Positions 203-60,629 of a stretch of 64,000 bases of DNA are shown here, in pieces. The notes below the pieces were generated by a model. The model was not told the origin of the DNA, searched no databases, and saw nothing but the letters and a program-made list of their open reading frames with translations. Position numbers and translations under genes: made by a program. Position 1 is the stretch's first letter. Each line of letters begins with the position of its first letter. The DNA is from a virus: positions 35,794 through 99,793 of the IMG/VR virus record IMGVR_UViG_3300003465_000003; one strand, given 5' to 3'.

Positions 203-571
203 TCACTCGCCCTCCGCTGGAACAATCCAACCCTTCTGCGTTCTATATTCAACCTTAAGATTATCAGGTTGCATCAGTTCTTCTACTCGCTCATCAATAC
301 TCTTATGCTCAGTCATTAGGCTAGCACGCAGTTTGGCCCATGATTGAAATGTCTTACTCTCTGCCATCCTACGAAAGGCAAGCTCTTTGTTCTTTTGTTG
401 ACTACGGGTGTCCACTGCGCGCCCTACTGCGCCAGAGTGTTTATGTAGAATACGAACTCCTGTATTGGATGTATCTTTCCCACTTCCCCCGTGTCCACCT
501 ACTGTAAATGTCTGGACTTCGCAGTCTTTAATTGTTACGGAAAATAATGGTTTACAATTGTTCTTCGCCAT
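203..571 (-). CDS. RF-1-domain (release factor/ArfB/PrfH-like) peptidyl-tRNA hydrolase homolog with GGS in place of GGQ
   Basis: TFTVGGHGGSGKDTSNTGVRILHKHSGAVG...RSQQKNKELA aligns without gaps to the RF1 domain-3 pattern [27 protein letters not shown]...RSQHKNK. Confidence 0.8.
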   Translation of the reverse strand: MAKNNCKPLFSVTIKDCEVQTFTVGGHGGSGKDTSNTGVRILHKHSGAVGRAVDTRSQQKNKELAFRRMAESKTFQSWAKLRASLMTEHKSIDERVEELMQPDNLKVEYRTQKGWIVPAEGE

Positions 572-1241
572 TTCTAACCTTAGGCGGGACTAGTTGTTTT
601 AATATAGCCCGTATAATATCGCACTGACCACAGTTCCCAGCTTCATCAAGCGACCCGCAACCCACATGGGCTATCAGATCACTAATATGGTGCAGTTTAT
701 TCTTTGCCATTATATCTCACGCCCTATCTTTTTGCAGCCTAATTTGTATAATTCGTGAAGATGTTTCTTTACTAAAACCAGATCCTCGTCACTTGCATCT
801 TCAAATGGTATAGTGCGCTCATAACCTTTAGCAATTCTATCACGTTGCCATTGTTCACTTGATATGTCGTGTATAGCAGCAATGATATGACTTAATTCTA
901 AGTTATCATCTTCGCATACACTATGCGCTACGGCATTACCAGCGTCTCTATGCTCTTCCATGAAGGCTTGATTTAGGTCGTAGATTTCATCATCACCATA
1001 ATATTCGCGTAGGTCTTCACGACAAGCATCACACATAGCATTTATTCCTTATATCCAAACTGCCTTTCCCACTCTTCGCGCTCCCATTGACGTTGCGCCT
1101 CACGCTCTTCCTGCCTTCGTATCTCTTCCTCATTAAATTCGCAATTAAAACAACGCTCATCGTAACCGTTGAAGGTTGGGCATAAGGCATTATGTTGGTC
1201 ACACCTGAATTCTGCTTGACAATCTATACATATATGCCAAG

Positions 1242-1961
1242 TTAGATCACACATAGTTCCTCCAACGCACTTTCCCAACTGTAATACTCAGGCTCCACAA
1301 CCTGCTGTTCCCCACTCGCTATCTTTAACGCTTCTTGCCCATGTTGGACAAGCGCGGGTTGTCGAAGGATAAACGCCGGATGCGGGGCAAACACCCACTT
1401 TTTACCATCCTTCATATACTCTCTGCCTATACGGCCCATTACCCCCTTTAGATCACGTCCTAATCGTTTATCAGACGCATCTTCCGCCTCCAGTTCCTCC
1501 CGGAAAAAACACCGTTGCGGACTATCACCGAACAAGACGACAGTGTGTATGGATTCAGGAAATGAATCGTATACCCTGCATTGGGCTTCGGCAAGTAGCT
1601 TCTCTTCCCCCCTAGGATACGGTCTGCCTTGAACCTCTGGAGGTAAGCATCTAAGGGTGTTCGCATACATTATCTCCCCACGTTCTTTAGCAAGCTGAAT
1701 ACGAGGCACAGCGCGTATCAGCCAATTATCCAATACGAATCCTGCCTTGCCTACGAATGGTTCGCCCTTTAGAATCTCGTTCTTTCCAGGCGCTTCTCCC
1801 ATCAGCAAATATTTAGCCTGCTTCTGTGCCTTACGGTCTGGACAAAATCCCTGTCCTTTGTCTTTAAGGGGGCACCCCTCACACCCATTAGGCTTTAGCA
1901 ATTGTTCTCCAATATCTCGTAATCTGGCGGCAAGCGATTTGGGAAACACCATACTGCCCAT
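1242..1961 (-). CDS. Uracil-DNA glycosylase, family 4-like
   Basis: CEGCPL, GEAPGKNE, EPFVGKAG, NTLRCLPP and HPAFILR motifs. Confidence 0.9.
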   Translation of the reverse strand: MGSMVFPKSLAARLRDIGEQLLKPNGCEGCPLKDKGQGFCPDRKAQKQAKYLLMGEAPGKNEILKGEPFVGKAGFVLDNWLIRAVPRIQLAKERGEIMYANTLRCLPPEVQGRPYPRGEEKLLAEAQCRVYDSFPESIHTVVLFGDSPQRCFFREELEAEDASDKRLGRDLKGVMGRIGREYMKDGKKWVFAPHPAFILRQPALVQHGQEALKIASGEQQVVEPEYYSWESALEELCVI

Positions 1962-2305: not shown

Positions 2306-2656
2306 TTATTCTCCTTTTCCGTATAAATGTAAATGTCCAGTTATTTCGTTAATCTCTTCATCTTCTGCGGGACCAATGCCGAGTCCTGTTATAGTTCCCG
2401 GCGTTACCTCGGTCCTGCCTTCATCACAGATAAGTGCGGCAGGCAAATATCTGGAGACGGCCGTCTTGTATAGGGAAATAAGGATGTCCTGCCCGTATAC
2501 ACCTAACACAATCTTTGTAGTCCCTGTTCGGCCCCATTCATCTAAATCATCTTTAGATGTCAGATTACATGCTGCTACTGCGGCATGGGCTGCTTGAGAT
2601 GCTAATTTGCCAGGGGACATTCCCAAATCCTCCCGCATCACTAATACTTGCTTCAT
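2306..2656 (-). CDS. pth2: Peptidyl-tRNA hydrolase, Pth2 family
   Basis: KQVLVMREDLGMSPGKLASQAAHA, KIVL, DEGRTEV.PGTITGLGIGP, ITGHLHL: canonical PTH2 signature. Confidence 0.93.
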   Translation of the reverse strand: MKQVLVMREDLGMSPGKLASQAAHAAVAACNLTSKDDLDEWGRTGTTKIVLGVYGQDILISLYKTAVSRYLPAALICDEGRTEVTPGTITGLGIGPAEDEEINEITGHLHLYGKGE

Positions 2657-10153: not shown

Positions 10154-11056
10154 CTAGAATGCGCCCTCTGCAACCTGCAAACACGTCAACCCCAACTCCC
10201 GCCACATCTTGACCACACTATTCCTATCATCAAGAACAAATAGAACATTATAATCATTCCGGACATACTTATCAAACAACTCCTGCTTAACAATATAATC
10301 CTTCCTGAAATCTCCAGTAGGCCGCATCAAAAGTGGGCCACCAACTGGGCACAGATGCTTGGTCAAAAATGCTTCTGTTTGTGCTCTGAACTTATCTTCC
10401 CGTCCAGACAAATAGATGATCTTATACCTACGGTTACACATGGCAGATATAACTTCATATACTGGCAGGTTCAGGTCATCATCTGCGCACTTGGCAGCAT
10501 CATAAGGACTACGTTTTCCATCAAATAATGCCAATGTCCCATCTAGATCGCATATAATTGCCAGTGGTGTTTCCGACTTAGGAACATAATGTTCCACCTT
10601 GGGGATCGCCACATATTTCTCATACATCTCACGGATGACTTTCTCTCCTACACGCTTCCCCTCAGGACGCTTACTATCCCTTTCAATACACGTCTCTAAG
10701 GGGACATGGGTAAAGTCAACCACGCGGAATTCTGCACCATACTTCCTTGCCAAATCACTTAGGCGCTGCTTATGCTTCCCGAAGTTGCAGTCTGAGCAAA
10801 TGACGGATTCACCATGCGCCAACGCTCCCACAATAGCCTTATTACGGATTTCAATAACTTCCTTCTCCGTCTCATGTGACCACTTCCATCCTTGCTTAAC
10901 AAGCTCTGCCCTAATATCATCCTTATTAACAATAACTACCTTTTCTCCACACGCCTTAGCATTGATAACTTCCTGCTCCGCCCACGTAGTCTTACCAGAG
11001 GCCGGGATGCCTCTAGTCATCGTCAACGTCAGCTTCCTCTTCTTCCTCATAGTCAT
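10154..11056 (-). CDS. pseT: Polynucleotide 5'-kinase/3'-phosphatase (T4 PseT-like)
   Basis: RGIPASGKTTWA P-loop kinase fused to a HAD domain: DLDGTLA, SGR, K, DDR. Confidence 0.92.
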   Translation of the reverse strand: MTMRKKRKLTLTMTRGIPASGKTTWAEQEVINAKACGEKVVIVNKDDIRAELVKQGWKWSHETEKEVIEIRNKAIVGALAHGESVICSDCNFGKHKQRLSDLARKYGAEFRVVDFTHVPLETCIERDSKRPEGKRVGEKVIREMYEKYVAIPKVEHYVPKSETPLAIICDLDGTLALFDGKRSPYDAAKCADDDLNLPVYEVISAMCNRRYKIIYLSGREDKFRAQTEAFLTKHLCPVGGPLLMRPTGDFRKDYIVKQELFDKYVRNDYNVLFVLDDRNSVVKMWRELGLTCLQVAEGAF

Positions 11057-11162
11057 CTTCTTCTAACTCCCGCTTAATGCGTTCTATTGCTTCCGCCGAA
11101 TATCTCTTGCGCATCTCACTTATGAGTAAATCGATATCTGAATTGTTGCCCATAATATCCCT

Positions 11163-11604
11163 TTATAATTCTCTAAACAATGATCTGAAATTACGTATAG
11201 TAGTGGAATAATTAAAACACCCCAGATTACTTACGTAACTAACATAACCATCTTTAACATCCTTTACAATAAACCAGAAGTCTCCAAATGGGTTATGTTT
11301 ATCCATAGGGAACACCCATCTAGAACCAATCTTGGGTGGGGTAGCTAATAACCACTTTAACATAAAACTCCTTACACCGTAAGTAAATTTACTTATCGTT
11401 TAAGATTTCTTCATATTCAAATCTAAAAACTCGTATAGAGTAATAACTAACATCGCCATTTCTATCTATATAACGTACCCAACCACCTTTAACACCAGTC
11501 ACAATTACACGGTCTTTAACAAATGGGTTGCCGTAACGCAATAGCCATCTACTCTTTACTTGCGGTGGCGTCGCTAATATCCAATGCCAAATTGTCTTTA
11601 ACAT
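11163..11604 (-). CDS. Two tandem paralogous small proteins (11163-11363 and 11389-11604)
   Basis: Shared W.LATPP...SRW...NPF...V..VK.G.V.Y...SI/TIR.FR. Confidence 0.7.
11379..11396. promoter_or_regulatory. Palindromic operator-like site, copy 1
   Basis: GTAAGTAAATTTACTTAT, one mismatch to the perfect palindrome. Confidence 0.6.
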
Positions 11605-12139
11605 TTGCTCTCCTTACTCTAGCCAAAATTTCGTCCAAGTGTATTGGTCTATAATCAATAACCTCAACACTGACATTAATATATGGTATCACCCTGTCTC
11701 CAACTACAACAGGTTCGTAATCAGGATTTTGGTGAATGTGGCCATGCACGTTGCAGATTGCAGACCCAAGGGACCTAGGATGAATGGGAATATGCGAGCA
11801 TAGCACTCTCTCCTCACTGCGCCAAGTAGCATAAATCTTCTCGAAGCCTGCGTCTAAATACACCTTTACTGGCCAGTGGTCATGATTACCAAGGTATATC
11901 CGCTTATGACCATTATATCGTGCTATCTCTTTACGGAACCATTCTCTGTCCAGCTTACCGCCACGCTTTATCGTTACGTCTCCTAGAAAGGATACATGGT
12001 CTTGTGGCTTCACCAACTCATTATGGTAAGTCACTAAGGCATCATGCATCTCTGCAAGATCCTTAAATGGCCTATTACCATACTTGATGATATTGTGGTG
12101 TGCCAAATGGTGATCGCTACAGTACCATCTATCCGCCAC
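11549..12139 (-). CDS. Calcineurin-like metallophosphoesterase
   Basis: SDHHLAH, LGDV, GNHD, SH.P, HGHIH, INVSVE. Confidence 0.9.
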   Translation of the reverse strand: MADRWYCSDHHLAHHNIIKYGNRPFKDLAEMHDALVTYHNELVKPQDHVSFLGDVTIKRGGKLDREWFRKEIARYNGHKRIYLGNHDHWPVKVYLDAGFEKIYATWRSEERVLCSHIPIHPRSLGSAICNVHGHIHQNPDYEPVVVGDRVIPYINVSVEVIDYRPIHLDEILARVRRANVKDNLALDISDATASKE

Positions 12140-12755
12140 TCAATATCCCCCTCAATTTGGCTTCAGCCTCTTGCCTAGTCTTACCCAAATACAATGGGTC
12201 GAGGCATGTGCGGCATACAGTTTGCCAGTATGGACCACGATCCATATGATTCACAAATGTTACTCGATGGTCCCAAAATTTATCATGGCAAGAGCAATCT
12301 ATTATTCTTGGTTTATTCAGCCAATTTAATAACCAATTAAACATATCGTGCCTTTTAGTCCTCGTATGATCCTTGTTCTATCTTGTACATGTGATGAGTC
12401 CTTAAATTATCTGCAGCTATACAACATGTACAACCACGACCATCACAATCACACACCTGTGATAATCGTATGATGGCGTCTTCAACAGCCTCATAAAAGG
12501 TTGGAGATTCAAGCTGGCCAGTTGAATAGCGCTTCCTTGCCCGCTTCCTTATTAGTCTAGCCATATTATGCCCTCAACTCTTGCTCTAATCTAGCCACTT
12601 TTGCTAAAAGTGTGTTGATCATCGCATTCATTACTTTGTTCTCACTAACGTAGACTCTAAGGCTAGCTTCTACCTCTTTATTCCTGGCCCTCTCCTGCAT
12701 ATACAGACTCTTGTAATAATCAACTTCTCTAATGTCGGTTCCAATATTGGCCATA

Positions 12756-13385
12756 TTATGCCCTCAACGTCACATTAACCGGATGCCCAACCGGTTCATT
12801 CACTTCGTTCACATACGCTACATTATAAAACCTTGTATCGCCACTATCATATATTCCACGCGCTTCGTGTATATGCCCGCATACAAAGTTATCTGGTTTA
12901 ATTACTTTCACTTTGTAAAGTGATTCCCGTGAACCCACGTTTTGGCCACTAATAACTTTGTCAAGAATACCCATCACAGGACCATGACTAAGCAGAATAT
13001 CTAATCCTGCTGGGATAAGATCAAAGATGTCTCTCAATGCTGCCTCTGGCCGCATGAACGCCCAGGCTCCAAACGTTGGAGTCCATGGAGTGCCGTAAAT
13101 CCTTACACCCTCGATATTAACAGCCGCATCCTGCAAGTACGTCCAAGGCAAATCCAGGTGCTTCTCCTTAAGGATAAAGTCATGATTGCCTGCTATGCCT
13201 ACTATGTGCCTAGCATCAATGCTTTCCAACCACTCCTTGAATGGTCCCAGCATGAACCGCTCTTGCTGATCAAGGTTTATCTTGTCGTTATAATCCCCAC
13301 CAAGAAGCAGTAGGTCACACTTGGGGATCTCTGGCAAGTGACCATGTAAGTCACTAATTGCGAGAACATTCATCATTGGTCCCAA
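12756..13385 (-). CDS. Metallophosphoesterase (MPPED-like)
   Basis: ISDLHG, GGDY, AGNHD, YGTPWTP, SHGP, CGHIHE. Confidence 0.9.
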   Translation of the reverse strand: MGPMMNVLAISDLHGHLPEIPKCDLLLLGGDYNDKINLDQQERFMLGPFKEWLESIDARHIVGIAGNHDFILKEKHLDLPWTYLQDAAVNIEGVRIYGTPWTPTFGAWAFMRPEAALRDIFDLIPAGLDILLSHGPVMGILDKVISGQNVGSRESLYKVKVIKPDNFVCGHIHEARGIYDSGDTRFYNVAYVNEVNEPVGHPVNVTLRA

Positions 13386-13545
13386 TCCCCCATTATAGGT
13401 CTATCATATTGTATATACCGTTCCATCCGCCAATCATCTTGCTTATAAGGGATGCCTAATCGCTTGGCGATTCTCTTTGCCTGTTCGCGGGTCTTGCCTC
13501 GCTTAATCTGCCTTAGTCCCCTATTGTTATGATGCCTGCGGGTCT

Positions 13546-14391
13546 TCATGTTGTTGCACCTTCTGGAACTAGCCTACCGTTTTCTAACTTGTAACGTAGG
13601 TCCCTAGCCTTCCATTGCTGTAAATAAACATTGACCATCCAGCTTTCCACTTTTTCTGTATTAGGTTCGTCTGGAAGAGGAGAAGTTTCCAACAGATCCT
13701 TAAGTTCTTGATCAAGCTCCCCTGCTTTAGTGAGGCATTCCTGCAGTGTAGCTTTACCAGTCCTCACACCCAACAACCAACTACGTTCTGGTTCCTGCAT
13801 TGGGCAAGACACTCTGCCAGTCTTCAATAGCTCTACACCCTGGAACCCAAGCCTAAGCATATGCATGGCATACTTAGTATCAAACCCATACTTTTCTACA
13901 AGCTCTGGCCTATTTATGTCCCGCTGCCCACGTTCGCCCAATAGTCTCTGCCGTTGTGCCTGACAATAACCAAGGAAAGCACGTCCAGCCTTCTTACTGA
14001 TAATGTCTGGAGCCAGCTCCATTAGCCCAAAACCCAACGCATTAGACACCACAATTTTATCGCGCGGGGCAAACAATAGATTCAGGATTGTAGGATTACC
14101 ACCTAATGCCAGCCTGAGGTACTTCCTTAAACTATAGATAACGAGATCTAAATCCCCAGCACTGTTACGCGCATTATGTTTTTGTTCCCGTTCCGCCGCA
14201 GTCCGATACACAACCTGCTCAAACTGTGAGAGCCCAACCACATGCTGAATATCTTCTACACAGACTCCCATCTCATCACGGTCCTCCATCCCATCCTGCA
14301 CATTTAACCCGTGCAGTGTAGAACCTACGACCACTCTAAGAATTGTTGTCCGCTCCGCCATTTGTTGTAGATTTTGCATTTCCGTTCCCAA
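13546..14391 (-). CDS. RlaP-type DNA pol-beta-superfamily nucleotidyltransferase
   Basis: VVGSTLHGL...DRDEMGV, DLVIYSLRKY..L...GNPTIL..LF, GFDTKYAMHMLRL. Confidence 0.85.
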   Translation of the reverse strand: MGTEMQNLQQMAERTTILRVVVGSTLHGLNVQDGMEDRDEMGVCVEDIQHVVGLSQFEQVVYRTAAEREQKHNARNSAGDLDLVIYSLRKYLRLALGGNPTILNLLFAPRDKIVVSNALGFGLMELAPDIISKKAGRAFLGYCQAQRQRLLGERGQRDINRPELVEKYGFDTKYAMHMLRLGFQGVELLKTGRVSCPMQEPERSWLLGVRTGKATLQECLTKAGELDQELKDLLETSPLPDEPNTEKVESWMVNVYLQQWKARDLRYKLENGRLVPEGATT

Positions 14392-14546
14392 GTCTTATAT
14401 GACCATACATGTCACATTTGTAGTCCCAACCGCCACAGACTGGACATATTCCAGCTCTGCGTTCTTTACATGAATGTCCCGGATGCCACATCAAACACTT
14501 CTTCCCTTGACAAACGCAACACCTACAGAATGGTTCCGGTATACAC

Positions 14547-14891
14547 TTACCACTCCAATTTGTAGAGTCCATCGGCATCTCTCCACTCTACATGCAACTC
14601 CCATTTATCTATGAGCTTTTGGCACTCGGCACAGGGCCTAGACTTTATAATCTTTCCATTCCTGCGCCTGGCACTAGCCACGTAAATCGTAGCACCCAAT
14701 AACCGCTTCTTGTTCGCTCGCTGAATGGCGTGGGCCTCGGCATGTATACCGTAGCCGGTAGGTCCCGGCCCATTCCACCCCCACGAGAATATTCCTTCTC
14801 CATCATCTATAGCAGCACCAACCTGAACGGCACACTGTGACCTACCCAATATGTCAGCCGCCAGTTGGTATCCGTCCATTGGTTTCTTCAT
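14547..14891 (-). CDS. Zn-dependent cytidine/dCMP deaminase-like protein
   Basis: QVGAAI, GWN, HAEAHAI, SRPCAEC. Confidence 0.85.
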   Translation of the reverse strand: MKKPMDGYQLAADILGRSQCAVQVGAAIDDGEGIFSWGWNGPGPTGYGIHAEAHAIQRANKKRLLGATIYVASARRRNGKIIKSRPCAECQKLIDKWELHVEWRDADGLYKLEW

Positions 14892-15511
14892 CGTTGTTCC
14901 TTATGTTTCTTACTTGGCATTATTAATAATATCACGAATAAAACCATTAGAATCAGCAAAAACGTCATCCACTCTCCCGGCTCCGCCCCGCTCCGAGGCT
15001 TTATCACTATATTTAATAAGACGTTATAATATTATATTTTGGGCTCAGTAGTAGATCCTCTAAATCTGTTGGCCGTCTTCTTAAAGTAATTCATTGCTGA
15101 ATGCAGACCGGCAGATGCAGCCATCATCTCATGTCCAGCAAACATTGGGCACTCCTTGTTATTAGCAGCAGTTCGTATTTCAGTAATCAGCCCATTAATC
15201 CTGGCTACATAACCCTCACAAATCGCTGCGACTTCCTTGTTATTAAACATTTGATTTACTCCGCATCAAGATCCGGAATGGCATCGGCATCCAGTTCAAC
15301 TTCATTCGCTACGCGCTCACGTTCTCTTCGCCTAGCAATATCCAATTGCACAATAGCCATTGACATCTCCGCGTTAACCCCAGAAGTAATAATAGTCATT
15401 ACATTCCTAGGCGAAAACCCTCTATTAAACAAGGGTCTCAATAATCTGGCTACCTCACCAGCCATAGTTATACCGTTACCGTTATAATGTCCAGTTTCCG
15501 TAAACAGTGGT

Positions 15512-16474
15512 CTAAACATTGGACTCCCTTTCAAACTGCGCCCGCAATAAGTAATCCTTATACCACTCTGCTACCCCACGTGTAATCTGTCTACTAATAT
15601 GGGGCCACGCATACTTAAACAGTACGTTCTTAATATCTTCCTCACACTCTTTAAGCACGTCCTGCGGGATCTCTCGCACCAATAATCCAATATCCTTCGG
15701 GTGGTCCTCAATTAATCCACGTTCCCGCAGATGCATGAGCGCTTTCTGCCAACGTGCTTGAGTCCCATACGCGTCTCCAAGCTTCTGGATAACATCTTTA
15801 TTGCCTGGATTCGCATCCTTCCACGCGCTGCGATGAACCTCCTTAAACGCTTCACTTACGAACTTCCCGAACAACATCTTCTTGTCTGGTCCATAAAGTG
15901 GTGTCAGAGGCTTAATCACAACCCCTTCGATCTTCTGCCCTCCCAGTACGGACTCAGTATCCAGGAACTTCCTCAGTTCCTCGGCAGAGTTCACAGTCCC
16001 TTGATAGAGCTGAGGCACGACCTCAAGTTCTATACGCTCAGCTTCCGCTACAAGCTGGTCGTAGGGCAGATAGGTTTCCTGATCAGTCAAGATATCGAAG
16101 AGGATGACGTTATCCTTTGGCACGCGGTCATAGGCCAGTGCATTATGCTTTGGTTTCGCTAGCACTTCTCCACGGTATTGCCAGCCTGGTTTCAGCAAAT
16201 GCTGCCTAGCTTTAGCAGCAGCAACAGCAGATCTGAATAGCGCTTCAGGTGCATCTGCTATCATTACCGCACCCTTGCTGCGGACCTTAAGTTCATAGAC
16301 TCCGGGAACTTCCTTGAGCAGCCCACCCTCAGGTTCCAACAATGGGTACAGCCCAAACGCAAAGAAGCTCCCATCAACCTTCTCTTGTACCTGAACAGGG
16401 ACGGTAAACAATTCGCTAACCGCCCTGTGCCCAAGGTTGAAAATTGATTGAGGGCTGCAAAATGTAGTTGACAC
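15512..16474 (-). CDS. ATP-dependent RNA ligase, probably starting at GTG 16474
   Basis: QEKVDGS adenylation motif, RGE, LFDI, VVPQLY.G, EGVVIK, KFVSEAFKE; GGGAGG RBS 6 nt before the in-frame GTG. Confidence 0.85.
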   Translation of the reverse strand: MSTTFCSPQSIFNLGHRAVSELFTVPVQVQEKVDGSFFAFGLYPLLEPEGGLLKEVPGVYELKVRSKGAVMIADAPEALFRSAVAAAKARQHLLKPGWQYRGEVLAKPKHNALAYDRVPKDNVILFDILTDQETYLPYDQLVAEAERIELEVVPQLYQGTVNSAEELRKFLDTESVLGGQKIEGVVIKPLTPLYGPDKKMLFGKFVSEAFKEVHRSAWKDANPGNKDVIQKLGDAYGTQARWQKALMHLRERGLIEDHPKDIGLLVREIPQDVLKECEEDIKNVLFKYAWPHISRQITRGVAEWYKDYLLRAQFERESNV

Positions 16475-16497
16475 AAACCACCTCCCTGTGGTATAAT
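16468..16497 (+). promoter_or_regulatory. Sigma70 promoter of the HNH gene
   Basis: TTGACA-18 nt-TATAAT with extended -10 TG; ATG 8 nt downstream. Confidence 0.8.
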
Positions 16498-16505
16498 GGG
16501 ACATT

Positions 16506-17015
16506 ATGAAAACTAAGTACACTAAAGAACAACTGCAACCAATAATTGCAGACTCTGTATGTTGGAATGATGTATGTAGAAAGCTAAATCTCAGCCCCAA
16601 TGGTGGGAGTATAAAAAGCTTTCTTCGCCGAATAGCTGACCATTTTTCTATATCCTACACTCACTTTTTAGGCAAAAGAAAGAATAAGTTATTGCGCACT
16701 ACAGCAGTCCAAGCTCTTAGATGTAATTCAGGTTATAATCGTTCTACTATACGCAAAATAGTAGTGGAGGACGAACTGCTTCCATACAATTGTATTATAT
16801 GTGGACAACCCCCAATGTGGAATGGCAAGCCATTGACACTAATTCTAGACCACATAAATGGTAACTGTAGAGATCATGAGCTTAAAAACCTAAGGTTTGT
16901 GTGTCCAAATTGCGACACACAGTTACCAACTTATGCAGGTAAAAATTGTAAAGGTATCCCAAAGACGTTAACGACACCCAAGAAACCTAAAAGGGTAAAC
17001 AAATTCCACACGTAA
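16506..17015 (+). mobile_element. Free-standing HNH endonuclease, antisense to the operon
   Basis: CIICG...W.GKPLTLILDHINGNCRDHELKNLRFVCPNC. Confidence 0.88.
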
Positions 17016-19992: not shown

Positions 19993-20877
19993 CTATTCGC
20001 CGCCCCGTGTCCACTTGATAATCGCGTCAGCATATGCGACAGATGTGTTATTTTCTACGCCCGGAGCGCGATTCACTTCCAACACAATGAACGAACCGTC
20101 TGTAAGCTTGCCCATGTCAACGGCACCGAAGTCCAACCCCAGCGCTTTAACTGCCTTAGCCGCAAGTTCACGCATAGGCGCGGTTGAACGGAACCCCTCA
20201 TAGGCGATGACCCAACCCGCGTCAAAGGACCGAATCCAAGGATGTGAAGGCTGCCCATTAGGAGCCTGCTGGCGCTGTCGTTTGATCCCTGCACGGATGG
20301 ACTTCCCATTGAACATGTGCAACCGATATTCCTCTACAATGTTCTCCTTCTTGGAGTAATAGTCGGGTGCGACAGGTGCGCGGAGCAAGTCGGAACCCCC
20401 GACGTGGTTGTTCCTGCGCGGAAGCCATTCGTCAACTACTGCAGGCTGCCGCTGCCACTCGGCGTAACGGCGGTTTTCCAGATCTGCAAACTCAATCAAG
20501 CGCTGTGCTTCGTCCCGCGCAGTGTTGCGAGTAATTGCCCGCAAGTCTATAACCCGCTCCTCAAATGGCGCTCTGGCCCTGGCGGCAGGCCGCGTCCGGC
20601 TAACCTGCACGGTAGTAACTCCAGCCCGCGCCAGTATCTGGGCTTCCTCAAACTTACTCACAGGTGCAACATTGTTAAGGACCTTAACTCCATTTGGCAC
20701 CTGCGCCGGATACCGCTCACCCCAACAGATAACGAAGTCTCCAGCCGCAATGCGCTCCTGCATCAAACGTCCCTGACTCTTGCGAGCACGCACACCCTTC
20801 AAGAGAATGTCCTCCGCCAACAGATTCGCTCCCTCACTAGCTGCTCGACGATAAACCCAAATCATCGCACCCTCCAA
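19993..20877 (-). CDS. ATP-grasp ligase (RimK-like)
   Basis: EYRLHMF, A.KAVKALGLDFGAVD, VLEVNRAPG. Confidence 0.85.
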   Translation of the reverse strand: MEGAMIWVYRRAASEGANLLAEDILLKGVRARKSQGRLMQERIAAGDFVICWGERYPAQVPNGVKVLNNVAPVSKFEEAQILARAGVTTVQVSRTRPAARARAPFEERVIDLRAITRNTARDEAQRLIEFADLENRRYAEWQRQPAVVDEWLPRRNNHVGGSDLLRAPVAPDYYSKKENIVEEYRLHMFNGKSIRAGIKRQRQQAPNGQPSHPWIRSFDAGWVIAYEGFRSTAPMRELAAKAVKALGLDFGAVDMGKLTDGSFIVLEVNRAPGVENNTSVAYADAIIKWTRGGE

Positions 20878-23481: not shown

Positions 23482-24468
23482 TTACAACCTATATAGAAAT
23501 GCTGTGAAATCCTCAGCCGCAGGAGCCATCCACCGCTCAGCAATAGACTCCGTTGGGAAGAAGTGACCAATGCCTTTTTCACGCGCGCTGTTGCAAAAGT
23601 AGACGAACTTTGCAGATGCCCCAACCGGGAACATACTGATGTCAGCATGGCGTGTAAGGAACGGCATGATAACCTTGAAGTTCGCTACCGCCATGTCAAA
23701 ATCATTGGTATCGATAGCCAAACGAACTGCATCTATGTCTACGAGATTGGCAATATCCTGCTCCAGATTCTTACTGCCAGTGAGCGTCTCCTGTAATACA
23801 GCGACGGCCAATGACGTCATGCCATACATAAGGGACATCAGCCTGTAATCTCGCAGCCAGAAGTTGGATAGGGTACGGTACTCCAACCCATGCTTGGGTC
23901 TGCGGTACTCGCCCGCTCGCCCATAATTCTGTCTGCGTTCAGCAGAACCAGGGTCCCGGTCCAGCATAACGCCAGTGTTTCCCACAAATATGTCCATGAG
24001 CGGAACCAGACGTTCCCGTTCAGCAAGCAGTGGCCCGGACAAACCCATGTGAATATGCGCCCCAGCACTGCGCTTGGAATACGCCTTGCCATCAATATCG
24101 ATTGGCTTCGTGCCATAGAAGTTGTCGCTGGGCATACAACCAAGGACACGAGATTTCTCCGATACGCGAGCAAATTCCTCCGGCGTGACGGTAACCAATC
24201 CCTGATAATTGATTGATACCCCAGGATACCGCTTCAATACACCAGTAAGCGTGCGATACAAGTCCCCAATATTGGAGCGTAGAATCTTAAGGTCCGTGCT
24301 CGGAAATGGGTTCAACTCGAACTGAATACCGTCACGCACCACACGACCGCCGTAACTGACCAAACCCTTCTCGGGAATGATATGCTCAGACCCGATAATG
24401 CCCAATCCATCCTGTTGGAAGAATCCCTCAGGATCACAACCCCACACGACTGACGGCTGCTTCAACAT
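23482..24468 (-). CDS. phiEco32-like COOH-NH2 ligase type 2
   Basis: GCDPEGF, DGIQFELNP, RSAGAHIHMG, RRQNYGRAGEYR, GLEYRTLSNFW. Confidence 0.88.
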   Translation of the reverse strand: MLKQPSVVWGCDPEGFFQQDGLGIIGSEHIIPEKGLVSYGGRVVRDGIQFELNPFPSTDLKILRSNIGDLYRTLTGVLKRYPGVSINYQGLVTVTPEEFARVSEKSRVLGCMPSDNFYGTKPIDIDGKAYSKRSAGAHIHMGLSGPLLAERERLVPLMDIFVGNTGVMLDRDPGSAERRQNYGRAGEYRRPKHGLEYRTLSNFWLRDYRLMSLMYGMTSLAVAVLQETLTGSKNLEQDIANLVDIDAVRLAIDTNDFDMAVANFKVIMPFLTRHADISMFPVGASAKFVYFCNSAREKGIGHFFPTESIAERWMAPAAEDFTAFLYRL

Positions 24469-29329: not shown

Positions 29330-30943
29330 TTACAACCTCGCAAATTCCTGAACCGCCTGCGGAACGCTGCTATCAAATCCTGCAACGTCCGTCTGGAACG
29401 GATCATTGGGGTCCGCAATAGAGAACTTCGTAGGCGTCATCGCAATAACAACCTGCTTCGCATTGATCCCCATCTTGTCCCGGTATTGCTGCAATGACTG
29501 GCTAGGATGTGGTCCTGTATTGACTTCGTTATCCGTGATAATGATAAAGCAGTCCACTTCTACCTTGTTCTTCAATGCCCATTGTGTGGGCAGAGAGCAG
29601 TTGGTAGATCCAAATCGCATTGCGTTAGTCCGCTGCAATGCATCTGTCAACCGCATCTTGGGCGTAATGCCAAGGTCGCGGAATGTATCTGCAAATCCCA
29701 TGATGTAGTTGGTCTTCTCAACCTTCGCCACAGCAAGGGCCATAGCAGCAGCACCTTCAGCACAAGTCATGTTGCATGACGGGATGCTGGCCCAACCCAT
29801 ACTGCCTGATACGTCCACACCGAACAGGAACCGCTTACCAGTAGGCTCCACGAACTTGAACGCATTGTAAAAAGCCTCATCTAAGGCATCCACAACGGCA
29901 GGAACAGGTGTCCACACGCCAGCGCCACGGAGTCCGTGTCCGGCTGCGTACTGCTTCATAGCAATAAGGATCGCCACAGGATGCACGCGATTCTTCGCAA
30001 AGCTCTGTGCCGCACGGTCCCCCGACAGCTTATCCACAACTGTATTCGCTGCATTGGATAGTGGCTTAAGCAACCCGACCTTGCTCATATTGCCTAGATT
30101 ACGCAACAGAGCGTGCGGCGGCATCTTCTCCAAGAGAGCTTCCCACACTTCCGGCTTGGTAAGAGCCTCAGTGGGGAGCATCTCGCGGGAGAGATTGTAG
30201 TCGCGGATTAAGGACACCAAGTAATTCGTGTTAGTGCCGGATCTCTTTGCGAACTCGAATGCGGACACGATCAGTGGACCCTTGTAATTCTGGATATCTG
30301 CACCCTCGACCCTGCCTAAATCAATACCATCTACGATCCAGTTGTAAAGAATGTTCCGCACTTCATCTTCAGTCTTGGGGTGCGCCAACCGCAGTGCGTC
30401 CCTGTTGCTGAACCCATCCCGGCTCTGATACTTGACAACCTGATACGCCAATTCTTCAACCGGCTTGCTGTTGTACCACTCAGCTACCGCCCGCTTCAGC
30501 GCACGACCCCAACCACGGAACTGCTGAACGTAGGTCAGGAAGTGGAACAAGTGCGTCGGGATACGGGCCACCTTGGGCAACGCAGCAAGTGCATACGCCC
30601 GCGTACCGGCATCCTTAGCAGACGCAGCAAGGGCAAGAGCAAACAGGGCAGGATCATTTTTAACCGCCCGACCCTCATCAGAGATGGCTACGATAAGGTC
30701 AATTGCCCTCTTACCATCGGCTTCGATGCACTTGATGACATTCTCTGCATTCTCGCGTGTAAGCTTCTGTTCCCCAACATAGTAAGAGCCGCCCTCAGAT
30801 CCAAGGATAAGGAATCGTTCCATCTGCTTGAATTGGTCAAGTCGGTAGACGAACCCACCAGTGTTATTAGCAACCTGCTGCCGTCCCAGAATCGGCTCAT
30901 GCACGGACGAAATACGCGTGTTAAGCGAAGTGTATGCCTTCAT
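29330..30943 (-). CDS. rsr: Ro60/Rsr TROVE-domain RNA-binding protein with vWA domain
   Basis: NNTGGFVY, RFLILGSEGGSYY, GWGRALKRAVAEWY, KYQSRDG, ALLRNLG, RVHP, DVSGSM MIDAS, ITDNE, AGFDS. Confidence 0.95.
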   Translation of the reverse strand: MKAYTSLNTRISSVHEPILGRQQVANNTGGFVYRLDQFKQMERFLILGSEGGSYYVGEQKLTRENAENVIKCIEADGKRAIDLIVAISDEGRAVKNDPALFALALAASAKDAGTRAYALAALPKVARIPTHLFHFLTYVQQFRGWGRALKRAVAEWYNSKPVEELAYQVVKYQSRDGFSNRDALRLAHPKTEDEVRNILYNWIVDGIDLGRVEGADIQNYKGPLIVSAFEFAKRSGTNTNYLVSLIRDYNLSREMLPTEALTKPEVWEALLEKMPPHALLRNLGNMSKVGLLKPLSNAANTVVDKLSGDRAAQSFAKNRVHPVAILIAMKQYAAGHGLRGAGVWTPVPAVVDALDEAFYNAFKFVEPTGKRFLFGVDVSGSMGWASIPSCNMTCAEGAAAMALAVAKVEKTNYIMGFADTFRDLGITPKMRLTDALQRTNAMRFGSTNCSLPTQWALKNKVEVDCFIIITDNEVNTGPHPSQSLQQYRDKMGINAKQVVIAMTPTKFSIADPNDPFQTDVAGFDSSVPQAVQEFARL

Positions 30944-60361: not shown

Positions 60362-60390
60362 TTGACAAAAATAAGAAAGTATGCTACAGT
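60362..60390 (+). promoter_or_regulatory. Sigma70 promoter for the tRNA-like/MCP transcript
   Basis: TTGACA-17 nt-TACAGT with TG extension. Confidence 0.75.
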
Positions 60391-60499
60391 TATAACATAA
60401 CTAAGCACACCTCCGGGCGTTCATACCCTACTCCTTCCAAACGGGTTCCCGAACGCCCATTTTCGCTGGTTACGCGTTGTAACTGTGTGTTTGTCTTAT

Positions 60500-60548
60500 A
60501 GGGAGCCGTTCGGCGGTGCAGCAGGTTCGAATCCTGCGCTCCCTGCCA
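60500..60548 (+). ncRNA. Minimal tRNA-like element (acceptor plus T arm, 49 nt)
   Basis: AGGGAGC/GCTCCCT-G-CCA, perfect GCAGG-TTCGAAT-CCTGC T arm, only 14 nt in place of the D and anticodon arms. Confidence 0.7.
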
Positions 60549-60553
60549 ATTTT

Positions 60554-60629
60554 GCCGAGGTAGCTCAGTGCTAGAGCGCGTGGTTTTATGCCGCGAGGTC
60601 GGGCGGTTCGATTCCCTCTCTCGGCTCCA
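60554..60629 (+). tRNA. Atypical tRNA with UUUUAUG anticodon loop (nominal UUA)
   Basis: Full cloverleaf GCCGAGG/TCTCGGC, GCTC/GAGC, CGTGG/CCGCG, TCCA end; D-loop lacks GG and T stem is bulged. Confidence 0.65.

Follow-up and report, generated by a model that had tools for sequence, protein, structure and literature searches.

A phage release-factor-domain protein with a small residue in place of the GGQ glutamine and a conserved, remodelled tip loop

Few residues in biology are as strongly conserved as the glutamine of the GGQ tip of peptide release factors. What exactly this glutamine does is once more debated, and to our knowledge it is kept in all proven release and rescue factors. Among the proteins that consist of a stand-alone release-factor domain, ArfB (YaeJ)/ICT1 has a basic tail that probes the empty mRNA channel, and the tail of C12orf65 (mtRF-R) binds MTRES1 and tRNA on split large subunits. 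The two glycines of the motif take a backbone conformation that is possible for glycine alone (PMC4691834, PMC5799190). PMC4691834, citing Shaw and Green 2007 and Santos 2013, describes the main-chain amide at the Gln as critical for release, which a Gln-to-Pro change abolishes, and the Gln side chain as packing the site and selecting water over larger nucleophiles, a role also given in PMC5799190. A 2025 model (Aleksandrova 2025, as summarised in PMC13672221) has release-factor binding reorient the 2'-OH of A76, which acts as the nucleophile, and assigns the methylated Gln mainly to binding and positioning. Domains of the release-factor type without the Gln are also on record, and MRPS35, Dom34 and most baeRF-1 proteins are regarded as inactive or non-enzymatic, while PrfH and RtcB form a pairing for rescue and repair (PMC6514570; for the pairing also PMC9304027). 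Small release-factor-domain proteins of the family phrog_3122 are encoded by tailed phages of large size, many of which also carry tRNAs or genes for RNA repair, and include Catera gp202, EniyanLRS gp129 and gp125 of the Tunturiibacter phage Tunturi_3, the loops of which are of the GGQ type (GGQNRNT, GGQHRNA, GGQNQNK). A tblastn search matches 211 cultured-phage records, mostly of mycobacteriophages, in which the proteins are annotated as 'release factor', and a literature search found no functional tests of any member of the family, GGQ-bearing or not.

The gene considered here lies in a stretch of 64,000 nucleotides (the window) of an IMG/VR virus record of 99,793 bp, rated complete, that represents an uncultured phage; the terminase of this phage gives distant matches only (at most 27% identity, to phages of many hosts), with no close cultured relative. 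The gene occupies positions 203..571 on the minus strand, with its stop codon at 203-205, an ATG start and a Shine-Dalgarno-like AAGG 6 nt upstream, and encodes a stand-alone RF-1 domain protein of 122 aa, as identified from the list of open reading frames and from matches to Pfam RF-1 and phrog_3122. The Pfam RF-1 model (PF00472) matches residues 11-72 at 38 bits (E 1.8e-9; 37 bits when the whole genome is searched), above the curated cut-off of 35, and the phrog_3122 profile 'RF-1 domain peptide chain release factor' matches residues 8-118 over positions 23-130 of 136 at 103 bits (E 2.4e-29). Against PDB chains, phmmer returns RF1, mtRF1a and RF2 as the best sequence matches and sets GGS directly under the GGQ of RF1 (2fvo, 1rq0) and of mitochondrial mtRF1a (7nqh) with matching flanks; beyond GGS, the V-R-I-x-H strand, the S-G turn and the R-S-Q-x-x-N-K helix start are aligned with release factors as well. 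Residues 25-37 read G-G-H-G-G-S-G-K-D-T-S-N-T, in which G28 G29 S30 are encoded by GGG GGA AGT (482-490, minus strand) and G K D T S N T follow down to position 461. By alignment to the GGQ of RF1, the tip loop G28-G29-S30-G31-K32-D33-T34-S35-N36-T37 (461..490, minus strand) replaces the GGQ loop, with Gly-Gly kept at its tip and Gln changed to Ser. The reading frame, the Pfam match and the PDB alignment bear out the original prediction, which had placed GGG GGA AGT at the GGQ position of a release-factor-domain protein, and these sequence comparisons confirm that the observation is correct and that the resemblance to release factors is not a chance one.

The AlphaFold2 model of the protein, for which 54 homologues served as input (mean pLDDT 87.4), predicts a release-factor domain-3 fold for residues 5-87 (311..559, minus strand), consisting of three strands, the tip loop and a long helix equivalent to helix alpha-7 of release factors; lack of this fold had been named beforehand as grounds for abandoning the identification. 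In Foldseek, the top 45 PDB matches are release factors or rescue-factor relatives (PrfH, C12orf65/mtRF-R). Comparison of residues 5-87 by VIA-align with domain 3 plus helix alpha-7 of RF2, RF1 and mtRF1 gives Z 7.6-7.8 and an rmsd of 3.0-3.5 A over 74-78 residues (RF2 4v5e, mtRF1 8oir), and PrfH (Z 6.0-7.1; 9mq4, 9mor, 7sa4) and C12orf65/mtRF-R (Z 5.9; 2rsm, 7a5h) rank just under these. Because the sequence match adds to Z values that are middling by themselves, the predicted domain-3 fold can be regarded as safe. The rest of the chain, residues 88-122 (206..310, minus strand), is a helix plus beta-hairpin module in the secondary structure of the model (pLDDT 82-88), for which no structural match was found in the fold libraries searched; its conserved residues P102, E108, G114 and W115 stand in columns common to the GGQ-bearing relatives. 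One entry among the fold matches, PDB 9mtr, is a crystal structure of the 70S ribosome with an RF1 mutated to GGS.

Folds resembling the double-stranded-RNA-binding domain also appear among the matches, at Z ~5, and GHGGSGKDT is superficially like G-x4-G-K-[ST]. Both would fit a non-ribosomal function, in which the G-x-G-G-x-G-K-D-T loop serves as a phosphate-binding loop for a nucleotide or RNA end and the release-factor fold is a scaffold. Such a function is nevertheless considered highly improbable, as the Asp after the Lys is a misfit to Walker A, the scaffold conserves residues common with ribosome-binding release factors, and the RNA-binding-domain folds score under the release-factor matches.

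Within the RF-1 domain superfamily, the protein is a member of phrog_3122 and is not RF1/RF2, ArfB/ICT1 or PrfH. It has in common with domain 3 of RF1/RF2 (PF00472) the fold, the GG turn, the R-I-x-H strand, the S-G turn and the R-S-Q-x-x-N-K helix start, whereas the PCRF/codon-recognition superdomain (domains 2 and 4) and the GTPase-interacting domain 1 are absent and the NCBIfam models prfA, prfB and PRK00591 give 33-38 bits against cut-offs of 370-423. As in ArfB (YaeJ)/ICT1 and C12orf65 (mtRF-R), domain 3 stands alone, codons would not be read and codon-independent action is presumed. Those proteins, in contrast, combine GGQ with a basic C-terminal helix or tail, while the C-terminal 50 residues here (73-122) form a helix and hairpin and, as read from the sequence, hold 8 Lys/Arg and 9 Asp/Glu, a net charge of about -1 with no basic tail; the linker and basic C-terminal helix by which ArfB/ICT1 are recognised are lacking, and no ArfB or ICT1 chain occurs among the sequence or fold matches, an absence that would not settle the point by itself. 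PrfH-RtcB2, which acts in the rescue and repair of nuclease-damaged ribosomes, is a parallel in that a release-factor homologue is associated genetically with an RNA ligase and RNA-repair genes. PrfH differs in having GGQ and a domain that binds the decoding centre, and TIGR03072 (PrfH) gives 34 bits against a cut-off of 166.65, with the domain-3 part alone aligned; furthermore, the ligase of the window's phage is of the PF09414 Rnl type and not RtcB, it lies 15 kb away, and adjacency in relatives is occasional.

Loss of the catalytic Gln from a domain that is still conserved has precedents in MRPS35, which has the bacterial-type release-factor fold, and in Dom34/Pelota and Vms1, which have the eRF1 fold (PMC6514570), and the statement in the original prediction that GGQ is invariant was too strong, since MRPS35 is such a Gln-less domain. 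In these proteins, however, the Gly-Gly turn and the conservation of the loop are lost or degraded, whereas the glycines of the clade to which the window's protein belongs are invariant. The cultured-phage proteins of phrog_3122 are the nearest in kind, with 46-48% identity, a length of about 113-125 aa, the same architecture of domain 3 plus C-terminal helix/hairpin and scaffold positions conserved alike. They differ from the clade at the loop, where GGQ is replaced in the clade by GG-[S/A/G]-GKDTSNT, and just before it, where their Arg-[Ala/Gly/Ser] is Thr-Val in the clade.

A word-indexed search of 5.8 billion proteins for the nearest homologues returned 421 relatives, and the motif was tallied in the 120 nearest that were listed, which are 54-71% identical to the window's protein. 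The Gln is absent from all 120 (65 GGS, 34 GGA, 21 GGG), and the seven residues after GG-x are almost always GKDTSNT. When relatives farther off were sought with a profile among 1.84 billion cluster representatives, 563 proteins matched at E < 1e-10, and the best 150 of these divide into 127 with GGQ, about 17 with the GKDT loop and six in which GGS or GGT stands in a loop that is ordinary in other respects (P0140, P0162, P0178, P0189, P0198 and P0199). The window's protein thus appears to be one member of a large, virus-only clade inside the GGQ-bearing phage family phrog_3122, and no clade members were found when 185,579 representative genomes of bacteria and archaea were scanned by pattern. 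Although Gln-less domains of the release-factor type as such are already known, the clade is apparently undescribed; a literature search yielded no description of an abundant, virus-only clade that combines an invariant GG with a small residue in place of Gln and a new loop that is frozen. That the Gln is replaced and the neighbouring loop remodelled, so that a single-base error is not the cause, was part of the original prediction and holds. The loop is remodelled in comparison with RF1 but is less alien than had been supposed, since GGQ-G-R-D loops are already present in two GGQ-bearing family members (P0159, P0163); with G-R-D following the Gln in these, intermediates are plausible.

Decay of a GGQ gene, or a sequencing error in one, would be suggested by a single relative with one in-frame TAG, but is excluded by the absence of Gln from all 120 nearest homologues listed, where a decaying copy had been expected to stand alone among close homologues that keep GGQ, together with the invariance of the loop despite synonymous variation, the intact frame, the confident model and the single copy; its probability is put close to nil. 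The relative in question, L035:9992-10420 (+), is a clade member with a GGGGKDTSNS loop and the TAG at codon 13. Its match to the Pfam RF-1 model spans positions 14-116 of 116, and its C-terminus, unlike that of the window's protein, resembles the RF1/RF2 motif I-R-T-Y-N-F...D-H-R. Recoding of TAG at this locus has no support from ORF statistics.

Across 13 clade phage genomes, G-G-x-G-K-D-T-S is invariant, every synonymous codon is used, and both Ser codon families occur at S35 as well as at the Ser of the Gln position. Because the loop is invariant despite the use of all synonymous codons, GG-x-GKDTS is under purifying selection as a peptide. When 32 clade members are compared column by column with 146 GGQ members, the two groups turn out to conserve an identical set of positions, namely S11, D16, G26, G28, G29, R40, H43 and S46-G47-A48, followed by R56, N61, A65, F75, W78, E108, G114 and W115, with G28 and G29 conserved at 100% in the clade and in its GGQ relatives. 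Differences between the groups are limited to residues 23-24, where Arg-[Ala/Gly/Ser] has become Thr-Val, and residues 30-36, where Q-[N/H/K]-[Q/R]-N-K-x-x has become [S/G/A]-G-K-D-T-S-N; the length of the tip loop is the same, and the loop of the clade is conserved more strongly than that of the GGQ relatives. Since the changes are restricted to these residues, the scaffold and the family-specific C-terminal module are under the same constraint as in the GGQ-bearing homologues, and just the tip predicted to enter the peptidyl-transferase centre was rebuilt and then frozen. A FastTree phylogeny without the loop columns is poorly resolved, with the clade scattered and 12 changes, and one origin of the Gln-less clade is not rejected by an AU test (p 0.57); monophyly is compatible with both results.

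The genome of the window's phage holds one RF-domain gene, and each of the 12 clade records of IMG/VR (20-242 kb) likewise has exactly one, with no GGQ paralogue in any of them; the Gln-less form therefore occupies the genomic niche of the GGQ form. Fused or longer forms of the protein were searched for and none was found, which is weak evidence. Upstream of the gene, at a distance of 1.7 kb, lies a gene for a Pth2-type peptidyl-tRNA hydrolase (2306..2656, minus strand; Pfam PTH2 6e-35; NCBIfam arch_pth2 113.6 bits, cut-off 82), a type that is archaeal/eukaryotic and is also present in mycobacteriophage Catera and three related IMG/VR records. An RNA-repair block identified by Pfam (10154..16600, minus strand) comprises PNKP (10154-11056), a metallophosphoesterase (12756-13385), an RlaP nucleotidyltransferase (13546-14391) and an RNA ligase of the PF09414 (Rnl) type (15512-16600), all on the minus strand, and Ro60 with TROVE and vWA domains is encoded farther on (29330..30943, minus strand; Pfam vWA_Ro60 5.9e-54, TROVE 5.2e-38). 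Pth2, the RNA-repair genes and Ro60 are on the same strand as the RF-like gene. Pth2 was rejected as an obligate partner, as it occurs in 4 of 29 related records and is absent from all +/-10 kb flanks. The RNA ligase (PF09414) gene is present in 16 of the 29 related records, and 8 of the set's 10 clade records have it; it adjoins the RF-like gene in three loci (L009, L012, L017) and lies within the same string of same-strand genes in L028. As raw counts, these make an association of RNA ligase and RF-like gene no more than suggestive. When all ORFs within 6 kb of the RF-like gene were clustered for 34 IMG/VR loci and the window locus, no neighbour gene was widely common in the 35 loci except for antisense shadow ORFs.

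The three functions offered in the original prediction, a PrmC-independent rescue factor, a factor of altered nucleophile specificity and a weak A-site blocker, are all compatible with these data. The best reading of the data is that the protein still works at the peptidyl-transferase centre, given that the Gly-Gly and the scaffold are kept, that only the three smallest residues occur at the Gln position and that the GGQ form is replaced one for one. We give a probability of about 0.45 to the explanation that it is a codon-independent factor, able to enter the peptidyl-transferase centre and to release stalled chains without a Gln side chain, and we would infer ribosome binding, catalysis and a biological role as follows. 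The domain would dock at the peptidyl-transferase centre, on its A-site side, either in stalled ribosomes or in split 50S-peptidyl-tRNA complexes, and, since it has neither a codon-reading domain nor a tail for the mRNA channel, it would act independently of the codon. Release of the nascent chain could be promoted by the backbone geometry of the GG-x turn, in which case the Gln side chain would be dispensable and methylation by PrmC likewise, and the invariant Lys-Asp pair possibly compensates for the missing Gln. The restriction of the replacements to Ser, Ala and Gly counts for Gln-independent release because the main-chain amide is held critical (PMC4691834), and the 2025 model, in which the Gln serves binding and positioning, likewise counts for it. 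In biological terms, the protein may serve in translation rescue during infection together with the phage RNA-repair genes, freeing ribosomes jammed through the damage that host nucleases inflict on tRNA or rRNA. This reading agrees with the RNA-repair context and has a parallel in PrfH-RtcB (PMC9304027, PMC6514570). As it would have no stall sensor, any ribosome with a lastingly empty A site could be a target, for example one starved by host anticodon nucleases, and a low intrinsic activity could give kinetic selectivity for long-lived stalls.

Several observations stand against Gln-independent release. The Gln is universal in proven factors, and the other Gln-less domains of the release-factor type are regarded as inactive (PMC6514570). 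A sensor of stalled ribosomes is not recognisable, be it a basic tail as in ArfB, a decoding-centre domain as in PrfH or a conserved partner gene; Pth2 is found in few of the related records, and the RNA-ligase association was counted with no background control. In addition, the Arg that stands seven residues before the Gln position, which is common in the GGQ relatives and in RF1/RF2, is Thr in the clade, and contacts of the tip may therefore differ.

The main rival is a non-catalytic occupant of the peptidyl-transferase centre that would bind the A-site side of the 50S or 70S particle with no hydrolysis and could block host translation or release/rescue factors, shield peptidyl-tRNA or mark ribosomes for Pth2 or a nuclease. 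The residue that defines active release factors is lost throughout the clade, MRPS35, Dom34 and most baeRF-1 proteins set a non-enzymatic precedent (PMC6514570), and an invariant Lys/Asp tip is as compatible with a new specific contact as with catalysis. We regard this as unlikely, though to be reckoned with, in view of the functional continuity suggested by the identical scaffold and the one-for-one replacement of the GGQ form. A mere binder would not obviously need the smallest residues at the Gln position with both glycines kept, and the six sporadic family members with GGS or GGT in ordinary loops look as if the Gln were only weakly required there.

About nine tip positions (23-24 and 30-36) have changed in concert and are invariant in their new state, which looks like gained function and not relaxation and leads to another alternative, in which loss of the Gln opened the pocket to a non-water nucleophile or a different P-site ester. 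Candidate substrates would be N-acylated aminoacyl-tRNA or damaged or truncated tRNA, and cutting of the tRNA 3' end as in the eRF1-like Vms1 is a further variant. Such changed chemistry would be in keeping with the selection of water over larger nucleophiles by the Gln side chain, as reported by Shaw and Green 2007 (cited in PMC4691834), and the phage RNA end-healing and sealing enzymes would handle the cut tRNA. The exchange of Ser, Ala and Gly at position 30, however, argues against Ser acting as a nucleophile, and no metal-binding or nuclease-like motif is evident in the protein, so that changed chemistry appears rather improbable. On the broader proposal that the virus-only lineage is a second solution for the release-factor tip, be it release free of Gln and PrmC or a different peptidyl-transferase-centre reaction in nucleophile or substrate, employed in phage counter-measures against host attacks on translation, we remain tentative, with somewhat less than even confidence.

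The clade may be viewed as a natural, abundant and strongly selected evolutionary experiment on what the GGQ glutamine does. If clade proteins release peptides, the Gln side chain would not be needed in a native setting, and there would be a release domain that is independent of methylation; if they do not, phages would have made a precise binder directed at the peptidyl-transferase centre. The debate is over whether the Gln coordinates water or, as in the 2025 model summarised in PMC13672221, positions the loop with the A76 2'-OH as nucleophile. Because it sits with RNA-repair genes, this family of small phage RF-domain proteins is, with either outcome, a candidate for a ribosome-rescue or counter-defence function.

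Other features of the window and of related loci concern the surroundings of the gene. A Cys-rich ORF of 52 aa (C-x9-C-x2-C; 552-710, minus strand) ends 20 nt inside the RF-like gene, overlapping its start; neither Pfam nor PHROG gives a match for this ORF, and the related loci have no counterpart of it. A stand-alone protein of the uracil-DNA-glycosylase family (239 aa; 1242-1961, minus strand) is encoded two genes from the RF-like gene, and in the closest relative examined (L005:12443-15196) a uracil-DNA-glycosylase domain is fused to a family A DNA polymerase in a protein of 917 aa. Two genes of NAD salvage, one PRPP-synthetase-like and one for nicotinamide phosphoribosyltransferase (NAMPT), follow closely downstream of the RF-like gene in six related phage loci (L009:11244-13582, L012, L016, L030, L031 and L033). 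The early-gene block of the window holds an R2K-type ATP-grasp and a phiEco32-like COOH-NH2 ligase (19993-20877 and 23482-24468, minus strand) with weak to moderate Pfam matches.

Neither ARAGORN nor Rfam at the gathering threshold reports a tmRNA or Y RNA, and a tRNA gene is present at 60554-60629 on the plus strand of the window (Rfam tRNA, 47.5 bits). Its anticodon is UUA according to ARAGORN and would decode the ochre stop UAA, and it has an unusual pyrimidine at position 37. Of the long ORFs of the phage genome, 76 of 142 end in TAA, which makes it their most frequent stop, and ORF statistics give no sign of TAA recoding in this genome; stop-codon recoding was rejected, for want of a signal in these statistics, as the reason for the UUA-anticodon tRNA and for the TAG of L035 alike. 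Ahead of the tRNA, at 60362-60549 on the plus strand, a sigma-70-like promoter (TTGACA, 17 nt, TACAGT) precedes a non-coding stretch of about 150 nt. This stretch ends, directly before the UUA tRNA, in a tRNA-like minihelix with a fold energy that is not distinctive (z -0.9), composed of an acceptor-like stem of 6 bp, a small hairpin and a T-arm with GGTTCGAATCC, then GCCA.
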